From positions 1-64,000 of the forward strand of contig NMRA01000166.1 of the NCBI GenBank assembly GCA_002633005.1: a stretch of 64,000 nt of DNA, read 5' to 3'. The DNA is from Phoronis australis. Its lineage: Eukaryota > Animalia > Phoronida. The notes under the pieces were generated by a model. The model did no database searches. It was not told the origin of the DNA and saw only the letters and a program-made list of their open reading frames with translations. A program made the translations under genes and the position numbers. This document shows positions 2,715 to 50,390 of this stretch, piece by piece (within the stretch, counting starts at the first letter, position 1; every line of letters starts with the position of its first letter).

Positions 2715-2951
2715 NGGGCCCGGGCCCCCTGGGCCCCCCCTAAATCCGCCTATGAACACTAATGCATATTACTCGACACTAAATTGGTTAGAAAATTAAA
2801 TCGTGATTCAATAAAAAGGCTATGTACATTCTGTTAAGACTTAGATTAAGTTAAATTCTGTGCACAAACAAACAAAAGTACGTTCTCGAATGTGCATTAC
2901 CACAACTTCCACATCTGCGGGCTAACACTCGGTGGTACACGTCATTTGCAG

Positions 2952-3096
2952 ATGTTACTATACAAACTGACGAAAAAGCCCAAGTACAGAAAAGATATTA
3001 GCGCGTACATCGACAACTGGTTACCGACAGGAAAACTTAAGTACACCCCAAAAGGTCTGGCTTTCCGATTGAAATGGGGTTCTTTACGGTACGCCC
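2952..3096 (+). CDS. GH9 endo-beta-1,4-glucanase, internal exon (upstream exons not found in window)
   Basis: ttgcag acceptor at 2951 and gtaag donor at 3097. Encodes MLLYKLT...KYTPKGLAFRLKWGSLRYA, the GH9 'YTPxGL...WGxLRYA' motif. 145 nt, ends in phase 1. Confidence 0.93.
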
Positions 3097-3585
3097 GTAA
3101 GTATTGCCATCTTGTACCTCACATATCCGGCATCAGTTAGTTTAGTTACCTACAGTAATACATTTCAAGTTTGTGCACTATAAAGAAATAACACATGATG
3201 TGACAATTTAGTTTGTGTGTCGCGAAAACATACTTTCACGCATGCGTACATTTCTATCGAAAGAACAAATGCATGCCCTGAGTAAAATTTTCAGTCAAGT
3301 GTACCCCTAATTAGTTTCGAGTTGAAATGCAAATACTGCGACAATTTGAGGTTCATCACTCTATCGATGTTAGTTAAACAGGTGCACCCAGTACCTTACA
3401 CCGTCCCGTATGAGCTTGCGGTTTTCTTCCCCATCAACACATTCATTTTCTTCTTTCATAAAAGTTTAGAATCATTTAATCCGTTGGCTATTTTGTGATG
3501 TACCACCATTACCTTTCAGCTGCGATCATACTGTTTCGTCATATGACCCATGACCGGTGACCTAAATTAGTTTTCATTATTGCAG

Positions 3586-3751
3586 AAAACACAGCATTCC
3601 TCGCACTCTTAGCTGCCGACTTGGGCATCAAGCCTCATAAATATCGGAAATTTGCCGTCCGTCAAGTTCACTACGCACTCGGTGACACCGGAAGAAGCTT
3701 CGTTGTTGGGTTTGGCAAAAATCCTCCACTCAGGCCACATCATCCCGGAGC
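3586..3751 (+). CDS. GH9 endoglucanase exon
   Basis: ttgcag acceptor and gtatgt donor. Joins in phase and encodes [14 protein letters not shown]...[30 protein letters not shown] (GH9 'YxLG...SFVVGFG.NPP..PHH' motif). Confidence 0.95.
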
Positions 3752-5630
3752 GTATGTATTCCCAAATGTGCTATGAGACCCTTCTCATGCCAACATCCAG
3801 GTGACGTTATCAGCCAATACAAGAGTTCGCACTTTCGGCCACCATCTTTAGTACTAATGAAGCATCACTTCACATGCTTTTCCCGTGGAAATGGACGGTG
3901 GAGTAAGAGTTGGGCTGTGTGTTATAGACGCAAGTCCACCTAAAATCCTTCATCGGTGTTTAAACAAATATTTTTGAAAAACGCTCGATTTCGTTCCCAT
4001 TCTCTCTTTGGCTCTTCGCCTTCGGAATTATGGCGCTTAGCAACAAAGTGCCAGCCCGGGGCTCACACAAGAGCAGACGTATGAAAGGTAACGTCAAGAA
4101 TTATCTTAAAGGCTACGTATGTAGTAAGCTAGGAACATGTCTGAAATGGCTGATCGAATTCACATGAAAATTTCAGATACCATGCTTTATGCACTGTTAG
4201 CCAAAACCACTGTGAGGATTTGTTTTCAAAATTTTCCATTATTGCATGGGGACTATCAATAATAGGACTTCAATGATTTTCATGAAATTACATAAAATAA
4301 AAACGAAATGATGATTTAGAAAACTGTAAAAGCTTTTTTTTGACATTTCATCTTGATTATTTATATCGAACAAAATTTGGTCATGATATTGATACTGTTG
4401 TTTTGCTATAGAAGGACCGTTCTTTTTGTTAAACTTTATAAGAACGCTGACACGTGACCCAACAGATTGGTTTCAAGTCAAAAACCAAATTCTAAAGGCC
4501 TTCTGTTTTGAGAAAATATATATTTTTACTGAACTGAAATGTTTAGTTTTGTAGATATTTGGCCACATGTTTCACACCAGCACTCAAGAACATCCTACAT
4601 AATCTTAAGTTTTATTTTCAAACTATTTCTGGAAGACGGGAGTGGAATGCAAAGCCACACGACTCTCAAAACCTCGACATTCTTTTAGTGTTCAAATCAA
4701 CTCCCACCGCAGTCAAGCGTTCCATTTCGTTCCCATTCTTCCTGTGGCACTTCGCCTTCGGAATTATGGTTCTTAGCAACAAAGTTGCAGTCTCGATTTC
4801 ACTTGCCTGTTATTCGATAATAAAGTGGTTCCCGGGGCTCACACGTCACGGATAGCGTGTGAGACGACCCCACCCAATTTAGAGAGTCTTTGTTGAGACA
4901 GGTGATTTGAATCATATTTTGGAACCGCAGCTTTGTAACGAAATTGCAACAAACAAAAATAGATATTGCTCCTTTAAAGTACTGGTGAAAGATAATGATG
5001 TAAGATCACGAAGTCTAATCTTAACCAAAAATTATCCCAAAAATGGGTTTTGTGGCCATAGAAACGATCGTGTCCTCTTAAAGTGATTGACACTGGGGAC
5101 GGAGACCAGGGCTAGTTTGATCTCTGGACAAGAAATTAGACGAACCTTACACAAAAGGCAAAATACATCGTGGTTACCGCTTTTCAAAAACCACGCGATG
5201 TTCAATGCCATTGTCAGCTCAAAATACTAGACTTCTTAAACTACACTGCAGATTAGGATGCAAAAGTTCACTTTTTTCATTCCGTATGAAATTTCCAGCC
5301 TTCATGACGGTTTCTATTCCTCGCAAGATGTCACACGTTTCACTGAAAAACATGTTTGCATTTCGATAGCTTCTCCGTGTACAATATTGATTTATATTCG
5401 TGAACCTTACGAAGAGATGCCTTGCGATATTTCATGCAACCCTGGCAGGGTCTAATTTGGCATTTTTGTAGGTGCACGATCGCCCCATAGTTGATCACTT
5501 TTTTACATGAAAACGTTTTTGGTGTTGGGTGCTTCAAACACTACAGTTATACTGTTATGTTCAATTGCATGCGATGAAAGCGTAGTTGTTAAAGGTTTCA
5601 GTCTATTGTCTGGTAGTGCTCACGGAAACA

Positions 5631-18219: not shown

Positions 18220-18525
<306 letters not shown>

Positions 18526-29399: not shown

Positions 29400-30360
29400 A
29401 CTGTTGTTAAGATTACAATGACATATGATTACGAAAGTAAATAAATCATTTTCATACACATGTATACAATTCTATCCACTCACACAAAGAGATTTAATGT
29501 TATAAAGAAATTTTGATACTATTTCGAATAAAACTTTATTTTCATTTGGGTTGAGTTCTTGGCTTCCATATAGAAAAAAAATTAATTTTGTTGTACACTT
29601 GTGGAATTTCAGAATATCTGTTATAAATATTGGGGTATTGTTCGAGTGTCTGGAAAAGCTGTCCCTTCTGCTCCTTGCATACCTCACAAGCAAGGAAAAC
29701 ATGAGCATTTGTCTGTGCGTCTCCACAGCAACACAGAGGCGAAATATTATTAAAATTATGTCTTAATTTCTTGATGTTTAGGAATAGACCGCATCTTGAT
29801 CTATAAAGGATTATTTCGTGGTTGCGAGGATGTTGGAACGATGTCAATGGGACTGGCAACTCTTGAGTAGTCCTATGCATTTTGAAGTTATTTTGTAGAG
29901 TGCCCACTGAAGTGCCGCGAAGTGCTTTCTTTTATTTTGGATGGTAAGGAATTATTCCAGTTGTCAATACAAGTTAATATGGTAGATTTCCTGAAGCCTT
30001 GGCTGAGGAAAGATGGAACAGTGTGCATATTACTTTGCCGCAGTCCTGGTCTCGTGTTAGGTCTTTTGTAGGTGTCAAAGAGGATTTTATTTGAGTAATT
30101 GTTTATGTTGGTTAAGACTTTGAATGTATACATGGACAAGTGGAGTTTACGACGGGTTGCTAGTTTGCTCCAGTTGAGACTGTTTAGAACCTTGATTGTG
30201 TTGGATCCTTTGTATGCTCCTGTTATGGCTAAAGCTGCTTGGTATTGTAGTCTTTCTAATTGAAGAAGTATGCCAGCGTTTGCCGATTGGTAGATTATGT
30301 CACAGTAATCTGGATGTGGAAGAACAAAAGACTTGAATAGAGTTTCAAGATGCATGGAGT
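29400..30360 (-). mobile_element. 5'-truncated LINE (CR1/L2-group) ORF2 3' end
   Basis: LFKSFVLPHPDYCDIIY...LERLQYQAALAITGA...LNWSKLATRRKLH (RT C-terminus), followed by frameshifted RSRCG...SPLCCCGDAQTNAHVFLAC zinc finger. Confidence 0.9.
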
Positions 30361-32629
30361 TGAGATGACGAGAGACAATTCTAATTGGATAAATTTTGTA
30401 CTTTTTGAACGAGTTCGCGACATTTGAGGAAGTGCGTTGAATGCTTTAAATAAATAGCCGTATAAAGGTACGTTACGTATCTTAGATTTGTTGGTCCGTA
30501 CTTTTGAAACTAGACCAGCGAGACTCGTTTGCACTTGGACATGGATTTACTGCACGCCACAGTATGACGATTTTTACAATTTGCACACAGTCTCTTACAA
30601 TGAGCGTAATGGGCCTGGTCTGGGTCAGAGGATGCTCTTTTCACTTTAAAACTGAGCTTTAATCCATAAACGGTGCAGATGCCTTGCGCTTAGTATTCCA
30701 GGCAGTGACTTATGGTCTATTCTAAGGAATTAATTGGATTGGGAAGGCAAAACACCAGATTTAGTAGTGATGATAATGAGCTATTCAAGGTCGTTGATCC
30801 CCGTAGAGTTTAGCAAGGCCTCCATGTAAACGACCTCGAGCATTTCACCCCCAGATGGTCAAATGGCCTCTGGTAGTCGACTTCAACAAAGTTTGTGTTT
30901 AAAGTAAAAATGACCTGTGCTTCGGGATACGGACGCTTTTGGTAGAGTGAAATCATTGTTGTAGAAATCATACGGTTGTCGTATAGTACACGCCTAATGC
31001 AATGATCCAGTGATGGTTTTAGAGAAACGTTGCTGTGGGACAGTTTATAAGACCAGCACGTTAGTATTTCTGTCTTTTTTCCGATTCGATTTTCGTAGGG
31101 AGCAGGCATACGCGATTTCTTGTGCTACCTCACAGCGATTAAGTAGTGATTGGTCAAAACGTGTAATTAAACCGAACACATACATTCCTAATTAGATTCG
31201 TATGCTAGATCAGACCTCGCTAACGTGGTTTTGGTTAGTTTTGACCAGCCATTCGGCATTGTTCTTGTCTAGAAATCTTAATGCACTGCGTATTGTTTAA
31301 GACAAAATATGGTATGATTGCAAAACATAAAGCCCGTTCCGGATTACAAAGCGGTAGAACTATCCTTTGCCCCACAGGTAAAAAAGCGCGTTGTTTTTAT
31401 TGACCTATTTTAGAATGTCAGACACATTTCCACAGGTCATTTCGGAAACCGTCGAAGAACGGTATGGTCATGCAAAAATTTTCAATTATTTAAAACCGGA
31501 ATTGAAAAGCTATTTTCAAGAAGGGGGCTTCTGTTCGGTTCAAAATTAACCCGACGAACTTGCTTTATCAACTTTGCATTTTCTTGTCTTTTGATGTCAG
31601 AAAGGCAAAGATCATAACACACGTACCCACGGATATTTGTTACATCTATCCAACAATTGCACCCCAGACCCACGCCACAGTTGTACTACTCGGTTGGCAT
31701 TGTAAGGCCGAATAAAGTAATGCAGCTTGTTAAAAACACCACAACAAGAAAGAACATTCGGAACTCCAAAGTGGCGCGAAAACACCAGGCTCCAAAAAGA
31801 TCTAGACGGATATCGCGGTATACGTAATGTAGGTAAATACAGCGAGATTCGCGTGCTGTTGTGTAGTCCGAAACGGCAATATTGTAATGCGGTCATAAGC
31901 CCGAGTTTACCATATTGCAGCCTAGTGGGCAAATGAGAATTTCATACATCAATGACGCGGGGCACGCTCCTATAATCCCCTTCCATTCAAGTGAGATGGG
32001 AATGGCGGATTTGTCATTGCTAGCGCCTCTTTTTTCTATACGGACGCCCTCGTGATCTTCTGTTAAACTGGAGCTTCGCCCAGCACTCTTTAATGCACTA
32101 ATGTTTTGCCTGGATTAAAACTGCATATTGTTTTTCTTAGGTGTCCGAGAAACAGAAGTCAAAACTAAGGCACTCAGTTTAACCAAATCGGCTTCAAAAA
32201 TTCTCTACTTACAACCAGACTTTATTTCCTTTGCCAAGAACAACCGTCCTCGAAGCCCTTGGGTATAAAAAGCTCTTTGAAAATTGGGGGTTGGCATGCA
32301 ATTCTAAAGTTTAACCTCCTCAAATTTATTCGCAGATTTTAACCTGGATAAATGTTAAAAACATCCTGGATTTTGAAAGTGATTTTATCACGTCCAGTAA
32401 CATATTTCTAAGACACCACAGCAATTTTCATTCACGATCATAATTCGTATGCCCAGAAATGCAAAAACTGACGCGAGTGGGCGTGAAATGCGAGTGAAAC
32501 TGTTACCTTTGATTAGATCATCCATAAAGCTAACTAAGCTGAAGGATAGGGTCCCTACATACAACACGACCAGGCCCTGCCTTGCAGCAGCAGTGCCCAG
32601 CACACAATGTTTTTTTTTCTGGGAAACAT

Positions 32630-33569: not shown

Positions 33570-34548
33570 CATAGGCGGATTTAGGGGGGGGCCCAGGGGG
33601 CCCGGGCCCCCCCCCTTGGCTGCCGCAAACTTGAAAAAATAAAACAGTAAGAGCGTAGGGAAATGTTGAGTTTATTAATTAACCCCGGTAATTAAAATTA
33701 TGCGGAAGAAAAAATATTTAAATGTGTGCAGTTTTAGTGTTGTGGGGGGGGGTCTCAAATTCAATTTCAAGTGTCAAATTCGGAACACGGCGCATTCGTA
33801 ACGGAAGTATGGCTAAGTATAGGCTCTCCCGCGATATCCCAGGCGACCGGCAGTGGCGCTGTGCACTACGACTCCTTTTCCGTCGTCTGCTCCACTGTGC
33901 AATGAAGAAAATTTACTTCATTTTTTAAAGAAATGGAACCTGAGTGACGATGAAAAAACAGTGGCTGCTGGTAAGATGTGAATTTTAATCGAAGCCTTAG
34001 TGAATCACTCAGAAACTCGCAATACTCTCTTTGTCAAACCTTATCTTAAAGCAATCCCGTCATTATTGCCAACACGAAAGACGGATTTGGTCTTTTGGGC
34101 ATTTGAAGACTATTTTAAATTCGACAAATTTGTTAAAAATTGATGGCACAAAATATAAAACGTGTACTAAGCATTACAAAAAGAAGTAGGTTTCGCGCGC
34201 AAACGCTGTGGACAATAAACTAGTAGGTCTCTTAGTACGTGGTTGGTAGGTCGTTCGTGGTGGTGTAGTGGTAATGCACGTGCCCTCAGGCCGCCTGTTC
34301 GTGAGTTCGAATCTTCAGAAGTCGCAGTTTTTCCTGTTTGACACGTTCTCCGTTTTTTTTTTTTTTTTGCTTTTTTTCTTGGATAACATTTCAGGAATCA
34401 AGGAAAATGCTTGATTTTTAGAGGTAAAAACAGAACCCCCCCCCCCTCCCGACCTCCCCCCATTCGATGCTATGTGGTTCACTTTACGCAAATGCTTGCA
34501 GCCGGACAAAATGTTGCCCCCCCTTGGGATATCCTAGATCCGCCACTG
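33570..34548 (+). mobile_element. Complete copy of the ~980-bp TIR element with tRNA-like A/B boxes
   Basis: CATAGGCGGATTTAGG...CCTAGATCCGCCACTG flanked by TTATC/TTATC. A box TGGTGTAGTGG at 34261-34271 and B box GAGTTCGAATC at 34303-34313. Confidence 0.88.
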
Positions 34549-36272
34549 TTATCAATGGCACTTTTGTAATGTTCACAGCACATTTTGTTGAATGCGTCAA
34601 AAGAACAAGTTTACTATCGTGAAGGTGATACACTTAACTAGTCAATGTTGATTTTATCTCGATGACAGCCTCGTCGGCATGAGCGTACGTCAAACATATT
34701 AACTGGGATTCCCTTCGTTGATGAAAAGAGTACCCTCGAACAGCCGAAATACGAGCAACCAAATGACTTTCAAGAGTTCAAGGATAGCTCTTTGTTCAAA
34801 TGGTAAATGAAAAATCCTCACTTACAAACTGTAAAATAAGCGTGCATTTTTGAAAATCTATGCGTACTAATCATGGCAGAAATATGTTTAATAGACGTAT
34901 GTCCAGAATACAAATACCGGTAACCAACATTGGTGTTTTTAAGCCAAATATCCGATAAAATGACCACTGCCAGTGAATGCTTTCACACCCTTACACCGAA
35001 AAATAACTGTCAGATAGTCACGTACGCCGCATCCAGCCACACGGCGGCTACTAATGCGAGACAAATGTCGAACGTTTTTAGCACATGAGACCGGCAAGTG
35101 CTAATTTCTTTAGATACAATGCACATCTAGCTCGTTAGATTGCGTGGCTCTGGCCAAAAGACGGTATCTGCTCTGGCAAATGAACTCTGGTGACACGCAC
35201 GCGCTCGCTTACTCACAAACGCAGACAACTTCAAAACAAACGCCACGTGACAACAACATGTGTGTTCATCCAGACATTTTCTCATGTTGCCAATCATACA
35301 TATAGATGGCACAATGTACTAGCACAGATTTGTACCTGCCGTGATCCCGACTCCACGGGAACTTAAAAATCTTAGGGACGCTACTTGGAAAACTTAAGGA
35401 GAATTTCAGGTCATTTGCTTGAGTCGAAACTATATTTTTATTCAAGTATTCAAGTCGCCATATCGACGATTGCGAGGCAGGTAGTCGGCAAGTTTTCGCC
35501 CTGGGATTTCAGCACAATTTTCTGTAAAATGATCGTAATTTAGGTTTGATAGCAATGCACCACAGTTTTGTAGAAAGCCTTTCATAGATTACAGATACGT
35601 CACTGAGCGTTAATATGATGAATCTTAGCTTCCGATTTCACCCGTTTCGGAGACCGTGTTTCAACGGCCTTGGGTTATAATAAGCGCCCCCCCCCCCCCC
35701 NCCCCCCCAGAAACGAACTTTTCTAAGCGCCCTGGGCGGTTATTACGGCGAATACGGTAAGCGTGTCGGAATTTGTTGTCAGAAATAGAATGGGAGACTT
35801 AGGGAGTGTGCAAAAATAAGTCAATTCAAAACAATTACGAGGAACTTTAAACAACAATGTAAAACATCTAATCTCTGGAAAGATGGAGAATCAAAAGCAC
35901 TAACAAGAAGCCACTTACTGGGAAGAATTGGGTGTGTTAAAATTACAAGAGCTCATATCATGACAAAACTTTACTACGGCTGCAAACAAAGGAAAGTGAA
36001 CTGAACATCACTTTGTGAGTTTACAAAATAAAAACACTCCTAAGGAAATGTGACAATCATCAACCAATGGCTACGGGAATTCGGCAAATTACCGGAAAAT
36101 GATAAAAGATTATCAATAAGTCAGCAGATCATGTGTACATGCTCCCATTGGGTTACATAAAATTAGCAAATTGCTACGTAGACAACCATTTGAAACCAAG
36201 AGTATTTATAGCTCAAGGTCCTTTCTTGAAACTAGTCGAAGTACTGGCTAGAGCACAAGATACCAGAAAAAG

Positions 36273-36798
36273 ATAGGCATTTGTGCTTTAACTTCAATAG
36301 TTATCATTAGTTGTTTGTTACCATTCCACCTGTCTGCTGACAGAGCTCGCTTGCCGCCTGGTTGGAACAATATTAGTAAGAAAATAATTTTCACTGGAAG
36401 TCCAAGTAGAGATGAATGCTCCACCGAACAAGAGTGCAGACGAAACTATTCTTGTAAGGATGCACTCGGCTGTGAACGATTCGGCATAGGAAAGAAGCGA
36501 TCTGGCAGACTCAGTATTGGTAAGAAAATAATTTTCACTGGAAGTCCGAGTAGAGATGAATGCTCCACCGAACAAGAGTGCAGACGAAACTATTCTTGTA
36601 AGGATGCACTCGGCTGTGAACGATTCGGCATAGGAAAGAAGCGATTTGGCAGACTCAGTATATAAGAAAATAGTTCTCATTAGAAGTCCGAGTAGATATG
36701 AATGCTCCACCGAACAAGAGTGCAGACGAAACTATTCTTGTAAGAATGCACTCGGCTGTGAACGATTCGGCATAGGAAAGAAGCGATCTGGCAGACTC
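36273..36798 (+). pseudogene. Paralog of the Cys-rich repeat peptide precursor with lost start codon and a frameshift in unit 3
   Basis: taccagaaaaagATA corresponds to taccagaaaaagATG in the 47-kb gene. The signal region (I)GICALTSIVIISCLLPFHL aligns with MTIFALTSIAIVSFLIPFHL. An in-frame TAG upstream (36249) excludes another ATG. A 2-nt loss creates TAA at 36663-36665. Confidence 0.8.
36377..36798 (+). repeat. Three tandem 144-bp coding repeats
   Basis: Units start at 36377, 36521 and 36663 and are near-identical. Units 1-2 encode KKIIFTGSPSRDECSTEQECRRNYSCKDALGCERFGIGKKR...; unit 3 differs slightly and is out of frame. Confidence 0.95.
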
Positions 36799-45350: not shown

Positions 45351-45724
45351 ATATTGGGCTTCCGTAGTTTCCGTGCGGCATCAATATACATGTATGCTTA
45401 AATTACTCGAATTTGATTGTGATCGTCGAAAGTTGTGTAGTTGCCTTTTTATTATTTCTCTTTTAGTAACGTTACTTGGAAAAAAAACATCAATATTTTT
45501 CGTATTTGCCATTGTATCAACTCCGATAATTTTCTTTATGCTTTTGTGTTTGCCAAACGTTCGCTACTAGCTTGTAATCCATTCTTGATATTTTTGTTTT
45601 TGGGCCCGTAACTTCATATTGCGGTGCTTTGCAAGAAAATGTTTGGTAATTTTCTCTGACAACGGCAACTGTTACTTACATGCACTTCATCTCGTAAATA
45701 GTTGACAGATGCTTTTTGAACGTT

Positions 45725-46003
45725 GAAAGTCTAGTAAACTATTCAGTGCATGCGAGTCTGCGGAAGGTAAAAAAGAGTTGAATGATTACTACAATGCAGT
45801 TCAAAATTTATTGAATGTTAGTCTAACCAACCATTCAAAAGTCTAACTGATATCAATGAGCGTACAGTCTGAAAACTATTCACGGCTTTCGAGTCAAGAG
45901 AATGTAAAAAAGAGTTGAATAAATACTACATTGAAGTTCGAAACTGAATGAGTATTAAGCTAATCAACGTTTCTAAGTCAAAGTGACATCAATGAGGGTA
46001 CAG
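45725..46003. repeat. Two-unit ~140-bp tandem duplication in the putative 3' UTR of the peptide gene
   Basis: gtaaaaaagagttgaat...actaca...atcaatgag.gtacag occurs at ~45767-45868 and again at ~45904-46003. Confidence 0.6.
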
Positions 46004-46331
46004 AGAATATAAAAATCATTCAGGTTAATTTTCCATTGAATAATACCATGCTTGAAGTCTTCTCGTTTTGCCTAAATTTTACATCCATTTTAGTAATAAA
46101 ACTTAACATCCAAGTTGTCCTTGAAGCCCTTGAACTCAGAGACAGCTAGGCGAGGACTGCAATCGACGTATAAATGGGTTTGCATTTGGCGAGCTTGGAA
46201 TTGCAGACGGTAAAAGGCCGGGGGTGGGTCAAAGTGTTTTATATTTAAACTTTAGTTCATCGGAATGTTCTACACTAAACTTTAGCTCATTTTGCTAATC
46301 GGACAAACTTCTAGCTGGTTTCTCTTCGATG

Positions 46332-47126
46332 TTAATTTGGATATAGCTTCTTTCCGAGGCGAAATCGTTCACAACCGAGTGCACCGTTACAAGAGTAGTT
46401 CTTCCTGCACTCGATTGCGGTGGAGCATTCATCTTTACTCGGACTTCCAATGAAAACTATCTTTTTACCAATACTGAGTCTGCGAGATCGCTTCTTGCTT
46501 GTGTCAAATCGTTCGCAACCGAGTGCATTTTTACAAGAATAATTTCTCATACACTCTTGCGCGGTGGAGCATTCATCTTTACTCGGACTTCCAATGAAAA
46601 CTATTTTTTTAGCGATACTGAGTCCGCTTGATCGTTTCCTTCTTGTACCAAATCGTTCATAACCGAGTGCACTCTCAGAAGAGTTGTTCTCCTTGCACTC
46701 TCGTGAGGTGGAGCATTCATATTTGCTAGGACTTCCGATACTGATTCCACGAGGATTACTGGCAGGCACTGCCGTAATTTTTTTCACTATATATGGGTCT
46801 CGTTTCAAGAAAACTTCGTTGCTTTTTCTGTTGAAATGATGAGGCGCTTCATATTGACCTGCTACTTCCGCGACTTCATGACCAGACGACGTCAAGCTTA
46901 TTGTCTTCCAGGCTGCTTTCTCGCAATGCTTCTTCAAACGACTAAATAACCTCCACGTCAGTGGGCGAGATGGTGAGATTTCAAGACTTACGCGATTAGT
47001 TTCGCTTTGGTCACCGTCATTCAAGATGAAGTTCCTACCAGGCACCAAGTTGGTACCATCAAAAGCCAGATGGAATGGTATCAAAAAACTGACGATGGCT
47101 ATGGAAGTTAAAGCGAAAATGGTCAT
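46332..47126 (-). CDS. Secreted multi-copy Cys-rich peptide precursor (264 aa), family unknown
   Basis: Uninterrupted 795-nt ORF with a hydrophobic N-terminus (MTIFALTSIAIVSFLIPFHLA). Three units at a 144-nt period are bounded by KK / KKR / RRKR. Cys spacing is C-x5-C-x5-C-x5-C, and the last unit ends ...RFRL-G-KK. A homologous paralog lies at 36273. Confidence 0.8.
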   Translation of the reverse strand: MTIFALTSIAIVSFLIPFHLAFDGTNLVPGRNFILNDGDQSETNRVSLEISPSRPLTWRLFSRLKKHCEKAAWKTISLTSSGHEVAEVAGQYEAPHHFNRKSNEVFLKRDPYIVKKITAVPASNPRGISIGSPSKYECSTSRECKENNSSESALGYERFGTRRKRSSGLSIAKKIVFIGSPSKDECSTAQECMRNYSCKNALGCERFDTSKKRSRRLSIGKKIVFIGSPSKDECSTAIECRKNYSCNGALGCERFRLGKKLYPN

Positions 47127-47184
47127 CTTTTTCTGGTACTCTGCGCGCCAGTCACTGTTTCTACTAGAGTTTTAAGAAATACCA

Positions 47185-47197
47185 AACTATATAAATC
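47185..47197 (-). promoter_or_regulatory. TATA-like element of the peptide precursor gene
   Basis: ATTTATATAG lies ~65 nt upstream of the ATG; the paralog has TATTTATAG at the equivalent position (36203-36211). Confidence 0.45.
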
Positions 47198-48060
47198 CAC
47201 AAGACATCACGTGGTTGCCTACGTATCAATTACTTATTTGACGGGTTAACTAATATTAACGTGTACACGCCAAGTTCCACCTTAAGGGTTTAAGGTGCTT
47301 CCGTCCGCAATGTGCGCTCGAACATAAATGAAATATAACACTTGAATGAACACGCGATATCTGAGGTAATTGAACACGACATCCCGCAGATGGCGTATAC
47401 TAAATATATCCTAGAGTTAGATTTCATCTACCTCTTAAACGTGAATTCAAGAAAATGTCGTCATATCTATCAAACTGGACTCCATTTCTTACCATGATAG
47501 CACCAGTTTCAACATTTAATGATAGTGACTAAATTTAAAGCGGCTTTAAACCAGAGTCAAGGTTTGATTTCAGCATACCATTTGCTGTAACTGGTTTTAT
47601 CCTGTTCATTATTATGGTAGTTTGAAAGTGATCTGTTAGTTCCGTGTCAAAATAAATGTTAAGTAATTAGAAAGAATAGATCCATTTTAAGTAGCCCAAA
47701 ATTTGTGCATATGTACTTTTAAGTCATGGGGTCAGACTTCTTGACATGTACTTTAACGTCAAAATCTATTTTTAAATGGTGTTTACAACTTTGGGTTCTG
47801 AGGTCAAAGTACTGTAGAGATTCTAGAAAATTCTGAGAATAAACTGTAACAGCCAATGATGTGATTGAATACGATCATGTGGTTTTTATTAACCAATCAC
47901 TAAATAAGTAGAATATTATAATGTGGGCTTAAGTCAAAAAGAAATTCAGATGCGCTATAGAGTTGAAGCATAAAGACTTGCTACAGTGTACAGAGGAAAT
48001 TGTACGACAGAGCCATCTCGTGGAAGATTCTAGAAAGGACCTTGGCAAGGGCAAGGGTTA

Positions 48061-48721
48061 GGAGGCACAGAACAGTTCTCACTGGGTTTTGCCCAGTAAA
48101 ACCGACATCATTTGATTTGTCGCCTTTTCTTCACTCTACAAAAACACGATGCAAAGAATGACATGTTTTCAGTTATTTCACATAAAAAGCCCTGCAGATG
48201 AGCGCAGACACTTTATTCTCTCTTGTATTTTTGACCCTTTCAATCCCACTGAAAACCAAGCCAGACTAAGAAAAATAGGGGCAAAAAAGTGCAAAATCGG
48301 AACTTTTCACCCCAAAAACACCACACTTCCCTGCCGATGCACGACTAAAACCAACAATAGGTTCTGAAAGCAAATTTTCTTCAGATTCCGAAAATGTGGT
48401 CCAAAAGTACTGTCAACCAACTAGTTTTTTGGCAATTATGGCTTGTTTGAGGGCTACCTAGAATCGCAGCCAATTTCTCAGTCGCTACCCAGCAATGCAC
48501 AATTGCAACAGGGGGCCGCCATCTTGAAGAAGAGTGCAGCTACAGCCGAGAAAGTGGCTTTTTTATTCTCAGCATATGTTAACAAATGCAAACAAACCAC
48601 ATTCACTGAGCCTACATGCAATGCCCTCCTACAAAATGCCCCCAAACTTGGCCTACCCCAAAATTTTAATATTTTGCCGTGCAAATTGGCCGCGGCCGCA
48701 GCCTAACTATTCCGTGCCACC
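48061..48721. mobile_element. Kolobok-like MITE
   Basis: GGAGGCACAGAACAGTT vs right-end reverse complement GGTGGCACGGAATAGTT; flanks are TTA and TTAA. Confidence 0.6.
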
Positions 48722-49269: not shown

Positions 49270-50390
49270 TCTCACACATTTCGAAGCTGAGGATGTCACC
49301 TACCTAACTGACAGTGATGCTGCTGCGACAGCTTACAGGTTTAGGCCAAGTACTGAAAAAGAAAGAAAAATTCGTGACAGCAAAGGACTGGATGAGAATA
49401 TCATCATTAACGTGTGTCGCTTAACAGACCTGGTGGGACATGTGCATCAGGTTGCATGCAAATTAGGAAAACTAGAACTAATTGTTGAAAAAAGACTGGG
49501 ACTGTGAGTCTATGCATCATTGCACTGCAGAGTTTGCAAATATAAATCGCCCACTGTGCCACTGTCAGATGAGGTCAAGCAGCAGACGACTGGGCCACCA
49601 GCTGGAGCCTTGAACAGCCAGGCTGTATTGCCTGTGCTAAAGTCAAAAGTGGGAATTGAGGATGTAATCAACATCCCGACATGCTTGAATGTTGTGCCAG
49701 CATCCAATCGCTGCCTGCAGAATAAAATGAATGCCATGAGCCCAACACTAACTTAACTGAACAAAGAACAAATGATTGAGAACCAGCGCTACGTTAAAAA
49801 AGTCACCACTCTGGCTGGCGGTGAAGGTGTTGCAGACGTTCAGTTTGACGTTTCCTACTCTAGTAGGCCACAGGGTGGCTGCGAGAAAGCTAAGCAGAGC
49901 TTCGGTGGACTTGTTGAGCACACAACGACCCGAAAACTTCCACTGGCCCTTGCCACGGCGAACAAACACTGCAGGATTCCCGGGTGCAAGCATGAACACT
50001 GCAGCAAAAACTTCCCAGCTGAGAAATCAATTGCATTAAGTGAACGCACACTGTTACAAGCCAGCCTCATAACAGTGGAAAACAGTGGTGTGGACCTGAA
50101 TATCAGGAGCATTACGACCGATGCCAGCAGCCAAGAAGCAAAGGCCATCCGCGATTTCTACAGTGCCAAAAGAAAAAAAAAACCTAAACACTACAAATGC
50201 TTCATTCACAGACTGAGGCGAATGGAAAAAAAGCGTTAACGAAGCGGACTTGAAAAGTTTGCCCAGGTCACATAACAAGACTTGTTACAAGAGGAAACTT
50301 TCATCTGCTGTACGAGCCAGAGTGCGAAAAGAGCTCATCAACCTAAAAAACAGAAAAATCGAAAGAGATGAATTTTTGCATCACCGGAAA
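49270..50390 (+). pseudogene. DDE transposase remnant (Kolobok/Mutator-like, CxxH type)
   Basis: DVQFDVSYSSR ... KHCRIPGCKHEHCSKNF ... IRSITTDASS ... KCFIH gives two catalytic Asp motifs, a Cys/His insertion and CxxH. Interrupted by stops and frameshifts. Confidence 0.75.

Follow-up and report, generated by a model that had tools for sequence, protein, structure and literature searches.

In prohormone processing, a precursor enters the ER and forms its disulfides, PC/furin enzymes cleave it, carboxypeptidases trim the products, and PAM amidates those that end in Gly. Several systems of small cysteine-rich or multi-copy peptides come close to the locus described below. The sea anemone peptide Am-I has 27 aa and four Cys and is present in six copies per precursor (PMC3447340, PMC9863223). 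KARTESH (KASH1/2) and CHUPA of Asterias rubens possess a signal peptide, a convertase site and four Cys within 28-48 aa, are induced by injury and restricted to their lineage, and carry a Gly-Lys/Arg amidation signal in some members and not in others (PMC11891777). A LaIT1-like DDH peptide of scorpions consists of 36 aa with the spacing C-x5-C-x5-C-x5-C (PMC4447460; further background on DDH peptides is found in PMC4942781 and 10.1101/485722), and the CCAP precursors of spiralians are multi-copy and contain C-x5-C rings ending in GC (PMC8557429).

Here we describe two genes, A and B, in a window of 64,000 nucleotides of Phoronis australis (contig NMRA01000166.1), which almost certainly represent a real family of secreted-peptide precursors, now or recently, and one that probably still works. 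The precursor architecture has close precedents in Am-I and KARTESH/CHUPA, and the sequence family has no database match. As in Am-I, a four-Cys peptide occurs in multiple copies within a single precursor (PMC3447340), but Am-I has 27 aa and six copies against 35-36 aa and fewer units in A and B, and the likeness is one of description; the passages of PMC4772807 and PMC9863223 contain no match to the A/B peptides. With KARTESH/CHUPA, A and B would share a signal peptide, predicted from the hydrophobic N-terminus, along with a putative convertase site, a four-Cys peptide of similar size (35-48 aa in CHUPA), a patchy amidation signal and restriction to a lineage (PMC11891777). However, KARTESH/CHUPA have an acidic spacer, which neither A nor B possesses, and one mature region, whereas the units of A and B are in tandem and their pro-region is non-acidic (A) or missing (B); a unit profile retrieved no chain of this kind from the PDB at E<=10, CHUPA being compared by description only.

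The units have the LaIT1-like DDH spacing of four Cys, and resemble LaIT1 and phi-liotoxin-Lw1a in their length of ~36 aa, the 5-5-5 pattern and an N-terminal arm of 10-11 residues (PMC4447460, PMC3873696, PMC5086648). LaIT1/Lw1a differ by a single-copy precursor and a basic loop 1, which is neutral or acidic in A/B, and sequence homology was not detected, with no chain of that family in the PDB at E<=10. With CCAP the units share the C-x5-C ring ending in GC, predicted amidation and the presence of several copies per precursor (PMC8557429, PMC7179676), but they are three to four times longer, have a second Cys pair and lack the F-C-N start; membership in CCAP was rejected, since FC occurs in 0/5 units and CN in 1/5, with GC in 5/5. 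A cationic antimicrobial peptide was also rejected because the net charge is only -1 to +2.

A reading of this DNA from its sequence only had recognised no known family at the locus, and this was borne out by protein, Pfam, PDB, viral, prokaryote and metagenome searches. Five Pfam families were returned for A, none at cut-off, and the five units likewise had no match at cut-off. The best match, over the Cys core, was to DUF7107/EB module (E 0.0014; 19.3 bits, the cut-off being 24.6); it covers about half of the model below threshold and is likely cysteine-driven. Word-indexed searches of a 5.8-billion protein set, which considered near-length proteins only, gave 745 candidates for A (0 at E<=0.01) and 41 for B (0 at E<=1). 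No match was obtained by phmmer with two units against 1.84 billion representatives at E<=0.001, no usable one in ESM Atlas with residues 170-264 of A, and none in Rfam; the sole match among PDB sequences, over 10 residues of RepB, is put down to chance. None of the 20 pattern matches in viral contigs or the 79 matches in metagenome contigs was confirmed, and the one of 12 prokaryote matches that passed (L001) was rejected as 11 residues without the Cys pattern. The searched collections are mostly microbial, so the blank is compatible with presence in related animals. Five peptide motifs were absent from the literature text searched, and descriptive literature searches found no description of the family (figures, subscription journals and bioRxiv supplements lay outside the scope of both). 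The AlphaFold models are helical and not beta-hairpin, at low confidence (pLDDT 60 and 57), and fold searches with these low-confidence models gave 0 matches at E<=0.001 in Foldseek and 0 at Z>=2 in VIA-align. The DDH hairpin (Cys1-3, Cys2-4) is without a fold match among these searches, and the paired loss of Cys3 and Cys4 in one unit of gene A leans against it.

Gene A and its convergent paralog

Gene A is an uninterrupted ORF of 264 aa on the minus strand (46332-47126), recognised by translation and by comparison with shuffled sequence; no other ATG ORF of the window is as long, 30/30 base-shuffled versions of the window reached <=160 aa at most, and the plus strand of the segment contains stops. 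The sequence-only reading, which had called this ORF intronless, was right as to the reading frame, although a 5' exon may still exist. The N-terminus is hydrophobic, with 11-residue Kyte-Doolittle means of 1.9-2.5 in windows starting at residues 1-12, and its hydropathy predicts a signal peptide of ~aa 1-21/23 (47058-47126, minus strand) with a putative cleavage site. It is followed by a pro-region of 91 aa (46785-47057, minus strand) that has no counterpart in B, is not acidic (10 D/E, 13 K/R) and would remain open by chance with a probability of ~0.004. The pro-region was considered as an intron on account of an in-phase GT..AG pair and rejected, since its frame stays open, the GT and the AG motif both persist in B ~20 nt apart, and the few RNA reads of gene A fall within it. 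A TATA-like motif with a putative promoter function is located ~65 nt upstream of the ATG (47187-47195, minus strand). Downstream of the stop of A there is a 138-bp direct duplication (77%, 45728-46003) without coding resemblance to the units.

Paralog B, which the earlier reading had overlooked at 36.3-36.8 kb, came to light when the window was compared with its own sequence by tblastn and blastn; it lies 9.5 kb from gene A in convergent orientation. It consists of a 130-codon frame (36273-36665, plus strand) in which the hydrophobic leader leads directly, with no pro-region, into two identical units ending in Gly-Lys-Lys-Arg, with the stop codon at 36663. The predicted signal peptide of A aligns gap-free with the N-terminus of B, and the 5' region common to both genes (71% over 200 nt) includes the TATA-like motif, which in B is found at 36203-36210 (plus strand, function putative), so that the motifs of both genes sit ~65-70 nt upstream. 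An Ile codon occupies the position of A's start codon in this assembly, and no AUG is present in it between the TATA-like motif of B and the first unit. The signal-like N-terminus noted earlier for A stands as a hydrophobic stretch kept in both copies, that of B being without AUG, and the product of either gene is predicted only.

Just before the start position both copies carry CAG and two in-frame Lys codons (47131-47136, minus strand; 36263-36268, plus strand), which might act as a splice acceptor with a tiny exon 5' of it, though no pyrimidine tract is present. A 45-codon ATG-started frame (36139-36276, plus strand) begins upstream of the TATA-like motif of B and has its stop overlapping the start position of B in a different frame, which may be chance.

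The rest of the window contains the final exons of a GH9 cellulase of animal type (2931-3134, 3573-3770 and 18289-18522, plus strand). A search with one GH9 exon gave 28 matches, to mollusc, crustacean, insect and mite enzymes at 54-65%, without a close relative, and no further exon was detected in the gap of ~14.5 kb between the cellulase exons. Fragmented frames at 29542-30445 (minus strand), without Pfam match, resemble a LINE reverse transcriptase in its C-terminal portion. A broken Mutator-like transposase (Pfam PF20700) lies at 49508-50236 (plus strand), and an inverted duplicate (1798-2377 / 34012-34548) is 82% identical over 580 nt, one copy adjoining an N gap.

Repeated units, predicted processing and constraint

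A 144-bp repeat makes up the units in the 3' half of gene A (2.6 copies at 81%) and is open in one of three frames, the coding one. Three four-Cys units bounded by basic sites had been proposed for A from its sequence, and the pattern C-x5-C-x5-C-x5-C is present in two of them. Unit A1 (46644-46778, minus strand) is degenerate: Cys1 and Cys2 are kept, Cys3 is replaced by Ser and Cys4 by Tyr, RRKR follows, and the nearest upstream KK lies 11 residues further back. The two peptides predicted earlier are both encoded. That of unit A2 (46497-46604, minus strand) has 36 aa, lacks the amidation Gly, would be a free acid and is followed by KKR, and that of A3 (46353-46460, minus strand) has 35 aa and is the only one of gene A with an amidation Gly, followed by KK instead of KR. 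In B, the unit alignment delimits B1 (36384-36488, plus strand), a predicted 35-aa amidated four-Cys peptide followed by GKKR; B2 (36528-36632, plus strand), identical in peptide and also followed by GKKR; and B3 (36670-36780, plus strand), a four-Cys unit out of frame behind the stop codon. RRKR, KKR, GKKR and KK thus occur at equivalent places around repeated units, as in a multi-copy precursor.

The four Cys are invariant in 5/5 complete units, as are 21 of the 37 columns and ERF near the unit C-terminus. An internal dibasic pair between Cys2 and Cys3 is present in four of the five (RK in A3, RR in the B units) and absent from A2, and the net charge is -1 in A2, +2 in A3 and 0 in B1. The predicted peptides have calculated monoisotopic masses of 3964.8 (B1/B2, amide), 3860.8 (A3, amide) and 3984.7 (A2, acid). 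B units are 94-98% identical to one another and 71-83% to the A units, from which they differ at 17-29% of bases.

By established secretory-pathway processing, the leader would bring the precursor into the ER, where each unit would acquire two disulfides; convertases (PC/furin) would cut at KKR, RRKR and RxxR, followed by carboxypeptidase trimming, and PAM would amidate the Gly-ended units. A cut at KK would give an N-terminus for a 35-aa peptide, and one after RxxR a 41-aa peptide that keeps the conserved LSI[AG]KK. KK is a less reliable convertase site than KR, so the N-terminus may include LSI[AG]KK, and amidation would be surer for B1 and B2 than for A3. KR is given as the usual cleavage site and KK as an occasional one in passages of PMC7179676. 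Repeated units would raise the dose per transcript, and the peptides would likely be stored, released and act on a protein target, which the net charge of -1 to +2 favours over membrane lysis.

The evidence for purifying constraint on the peptide core is modest. By the Nei-Gojobori method, 12/12 diverged pairs (those including an A unit) gave dN/dS of 0.19-0.58 over 40 codons, the pairs being non-independent. Values near 1, which would have weakened the earlier proposal, are not seen among diverged units; changes are too few within the B-B pairs (0.27, 1.73 and undefined). Amino-acid changes were fewer than in neutral simulation in the four pairs tested (P 0.028, 0.097, 0.005 and 0.038). Third positions were not significantly enriched in changes (p 0.15, or 0.09 when A1 is included), the signal-peptide region was not different from neutral (P 0.24), and no sign of positive selection was seen.

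Transcripts of the two copies

Three raw RNA runs (X5, X6 and X7, under the same species label; ~18-19% of each sampled, ~35 million records) and one DNA run (X1) were mapped on 45601-48600. RNA reads were found on 46401-46700 in X5 and X6 and not in X7, in sense orientation throughout, assuming a standard stranded library. At the best-covered sites, B-type sense-strand reads numbered 37-41 in X5 and 31-33 in X6. Essentially all of them carry a letter other than that of gene A at the 11 variant sites listed, agreeing with B1/B2 at 11/11 and with B3 at 7/11, and their loose end at 46418 fits B and not A, simulated B reads breaking off at the same base. The B alleles and this break indicate transcription of B, or of a nearly identical copy at another place, in two of the three samples. 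Within the region unique to gene A, two bins of X5 alone had reads, at depths of 1.9 and 1.0, which amounts to about one read pair, and no RNA data set was listed as carrying the A stretch. Among these three runs the transcribed member is therefore paralog B rather than gene A: transcription, whose absence would have weakened the earlier proposal, is seen as sense RNA of B-type units, but the gene first singled out is nearly silent and appears to be either expressed at a low level or fading.

Contigs of X1 cover gene A without differences at depth 3-8, versus thousands in the adjoining repeat from 47660; X1 may be the source of the assembly and hence not independent of it. This very high-copy repeat (47660-48600, summed contig depth in the thousands) is covered by RNA reads of either strand in each of the three runs, and low-depth X7 reads on A's strand flank its coding region at 45601-45800 and 47301-47600.

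Candidate roles and implications

The family is young and of fast turnover, showing unit gain, loss and decay. On the analogy of the systems above, the chances are about even that A and B are a duplicated orphan pair of predicted secreted precursors which would yield repeated ~35-residue, two-disulfide defence or wound-response effectors. An effector rather than a classical neuropeptide is favoured by the conserved folded core, the variable C-terminus, the orphan status, the copy turnover and the on/off expression.

A neuropeptide or hormone is rather unlikely. Extra cuts at the internal RR/RK would give two one-disulfide C-x5-C rings per unit, of which the second would be amidated and loosely resemble CCAP, and their targets would be host GPCRs. 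The dibasic pair in four of the five complete units and the invariant ERF near the C-terminus are in keeping with it, and the joint loss of Cys3 and Cys4 in A1 fits 1-2/3-4 pairing weakly, since it has a 1/3 chance at random. Unit A2, however, has neither dibasic pair nor amide, and orphan status and copy turnover are unusual among neuropeptides. Multi-copy spiralian CCAP precursors with C-x5-C rings ending in GC offer a precedent (PMC8557429), but the CCAP-type F-C-N start is absent and the 3.9-Mb neuropeptide supplement of that paper has no meaningful motif match to the units.

The precursors of speract and asterosap release multiple peptide copies, and a gamete attractant or pheromone released in this manner is an unlikely alternative. 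The signal present in X5/X6 and absent from X7, within one study, could reflect sex or gonad state, and lineage restriction and the homogenisation of the B repeats agree with such a role; against it, positive selection has left no sign and no family match was found. It is unlikely, too, that the copies are decaying remnants, A silent with a broken unit and B a transcribed pseudogene without a start, the working member being elsewhere or extinct. The lack of an AUG and the out-of-frame third unit of B, the two Cys lost from A1 and the near absence of A transcripts would all be explained; yet the 264-codon frame of A is intact, no Cys and no GKKR is missing from B1 and B2, B-type RNA is confined to one strand and to certain samples, and the start of B could come from an allele that has an AUG, from a 5' exon or from near-cognate initiation. 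A non-genic repeat whose frame is open by chance, whether a minisatellite or the inside of a transposon, as might be expected in a window rich in repeats, is largely refuted and highly improbable given the single-copy DNA depth, which also answers the transposon repeat raised in the sequence-only reading, the hydrophobic leader and 5' region common to A and B, the one open frame of three, dN/dS <1 and the lack of a Pfam transposon or Rfam match.

A bolder form of the secreted-effector reading is quite improbable: the peptides would have a new helical scaffold, or an independently evolved polyprotein DDH fold, and act as secreted ion-channel or receptor ligands, the expressed copy, without annotated AUG, being translated by near-cognate initiation or from a hidden 5' exon, in a lineage without described peptide effectors. 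Such an AUG-less start of the expressed copy would, if true, explain why annotation pipelines miss genes of this type.

Orphan Cys-rich peptide families are common in invertebrates, and one more is unsurprising in itself. The locus nevertheless provides three defined, synthesisable peptides of 35-36 residues from a family absent in the searched databases, a lead for peptide discovery, and it bears on the open question of how frequently four-Cys folds of the DDH kind have originated beyond the arachnids. The A/B pair captures birth-and-death evolution at one locus, with units that are homogenised or decay and with the loss of a pro-region and of a start codon.
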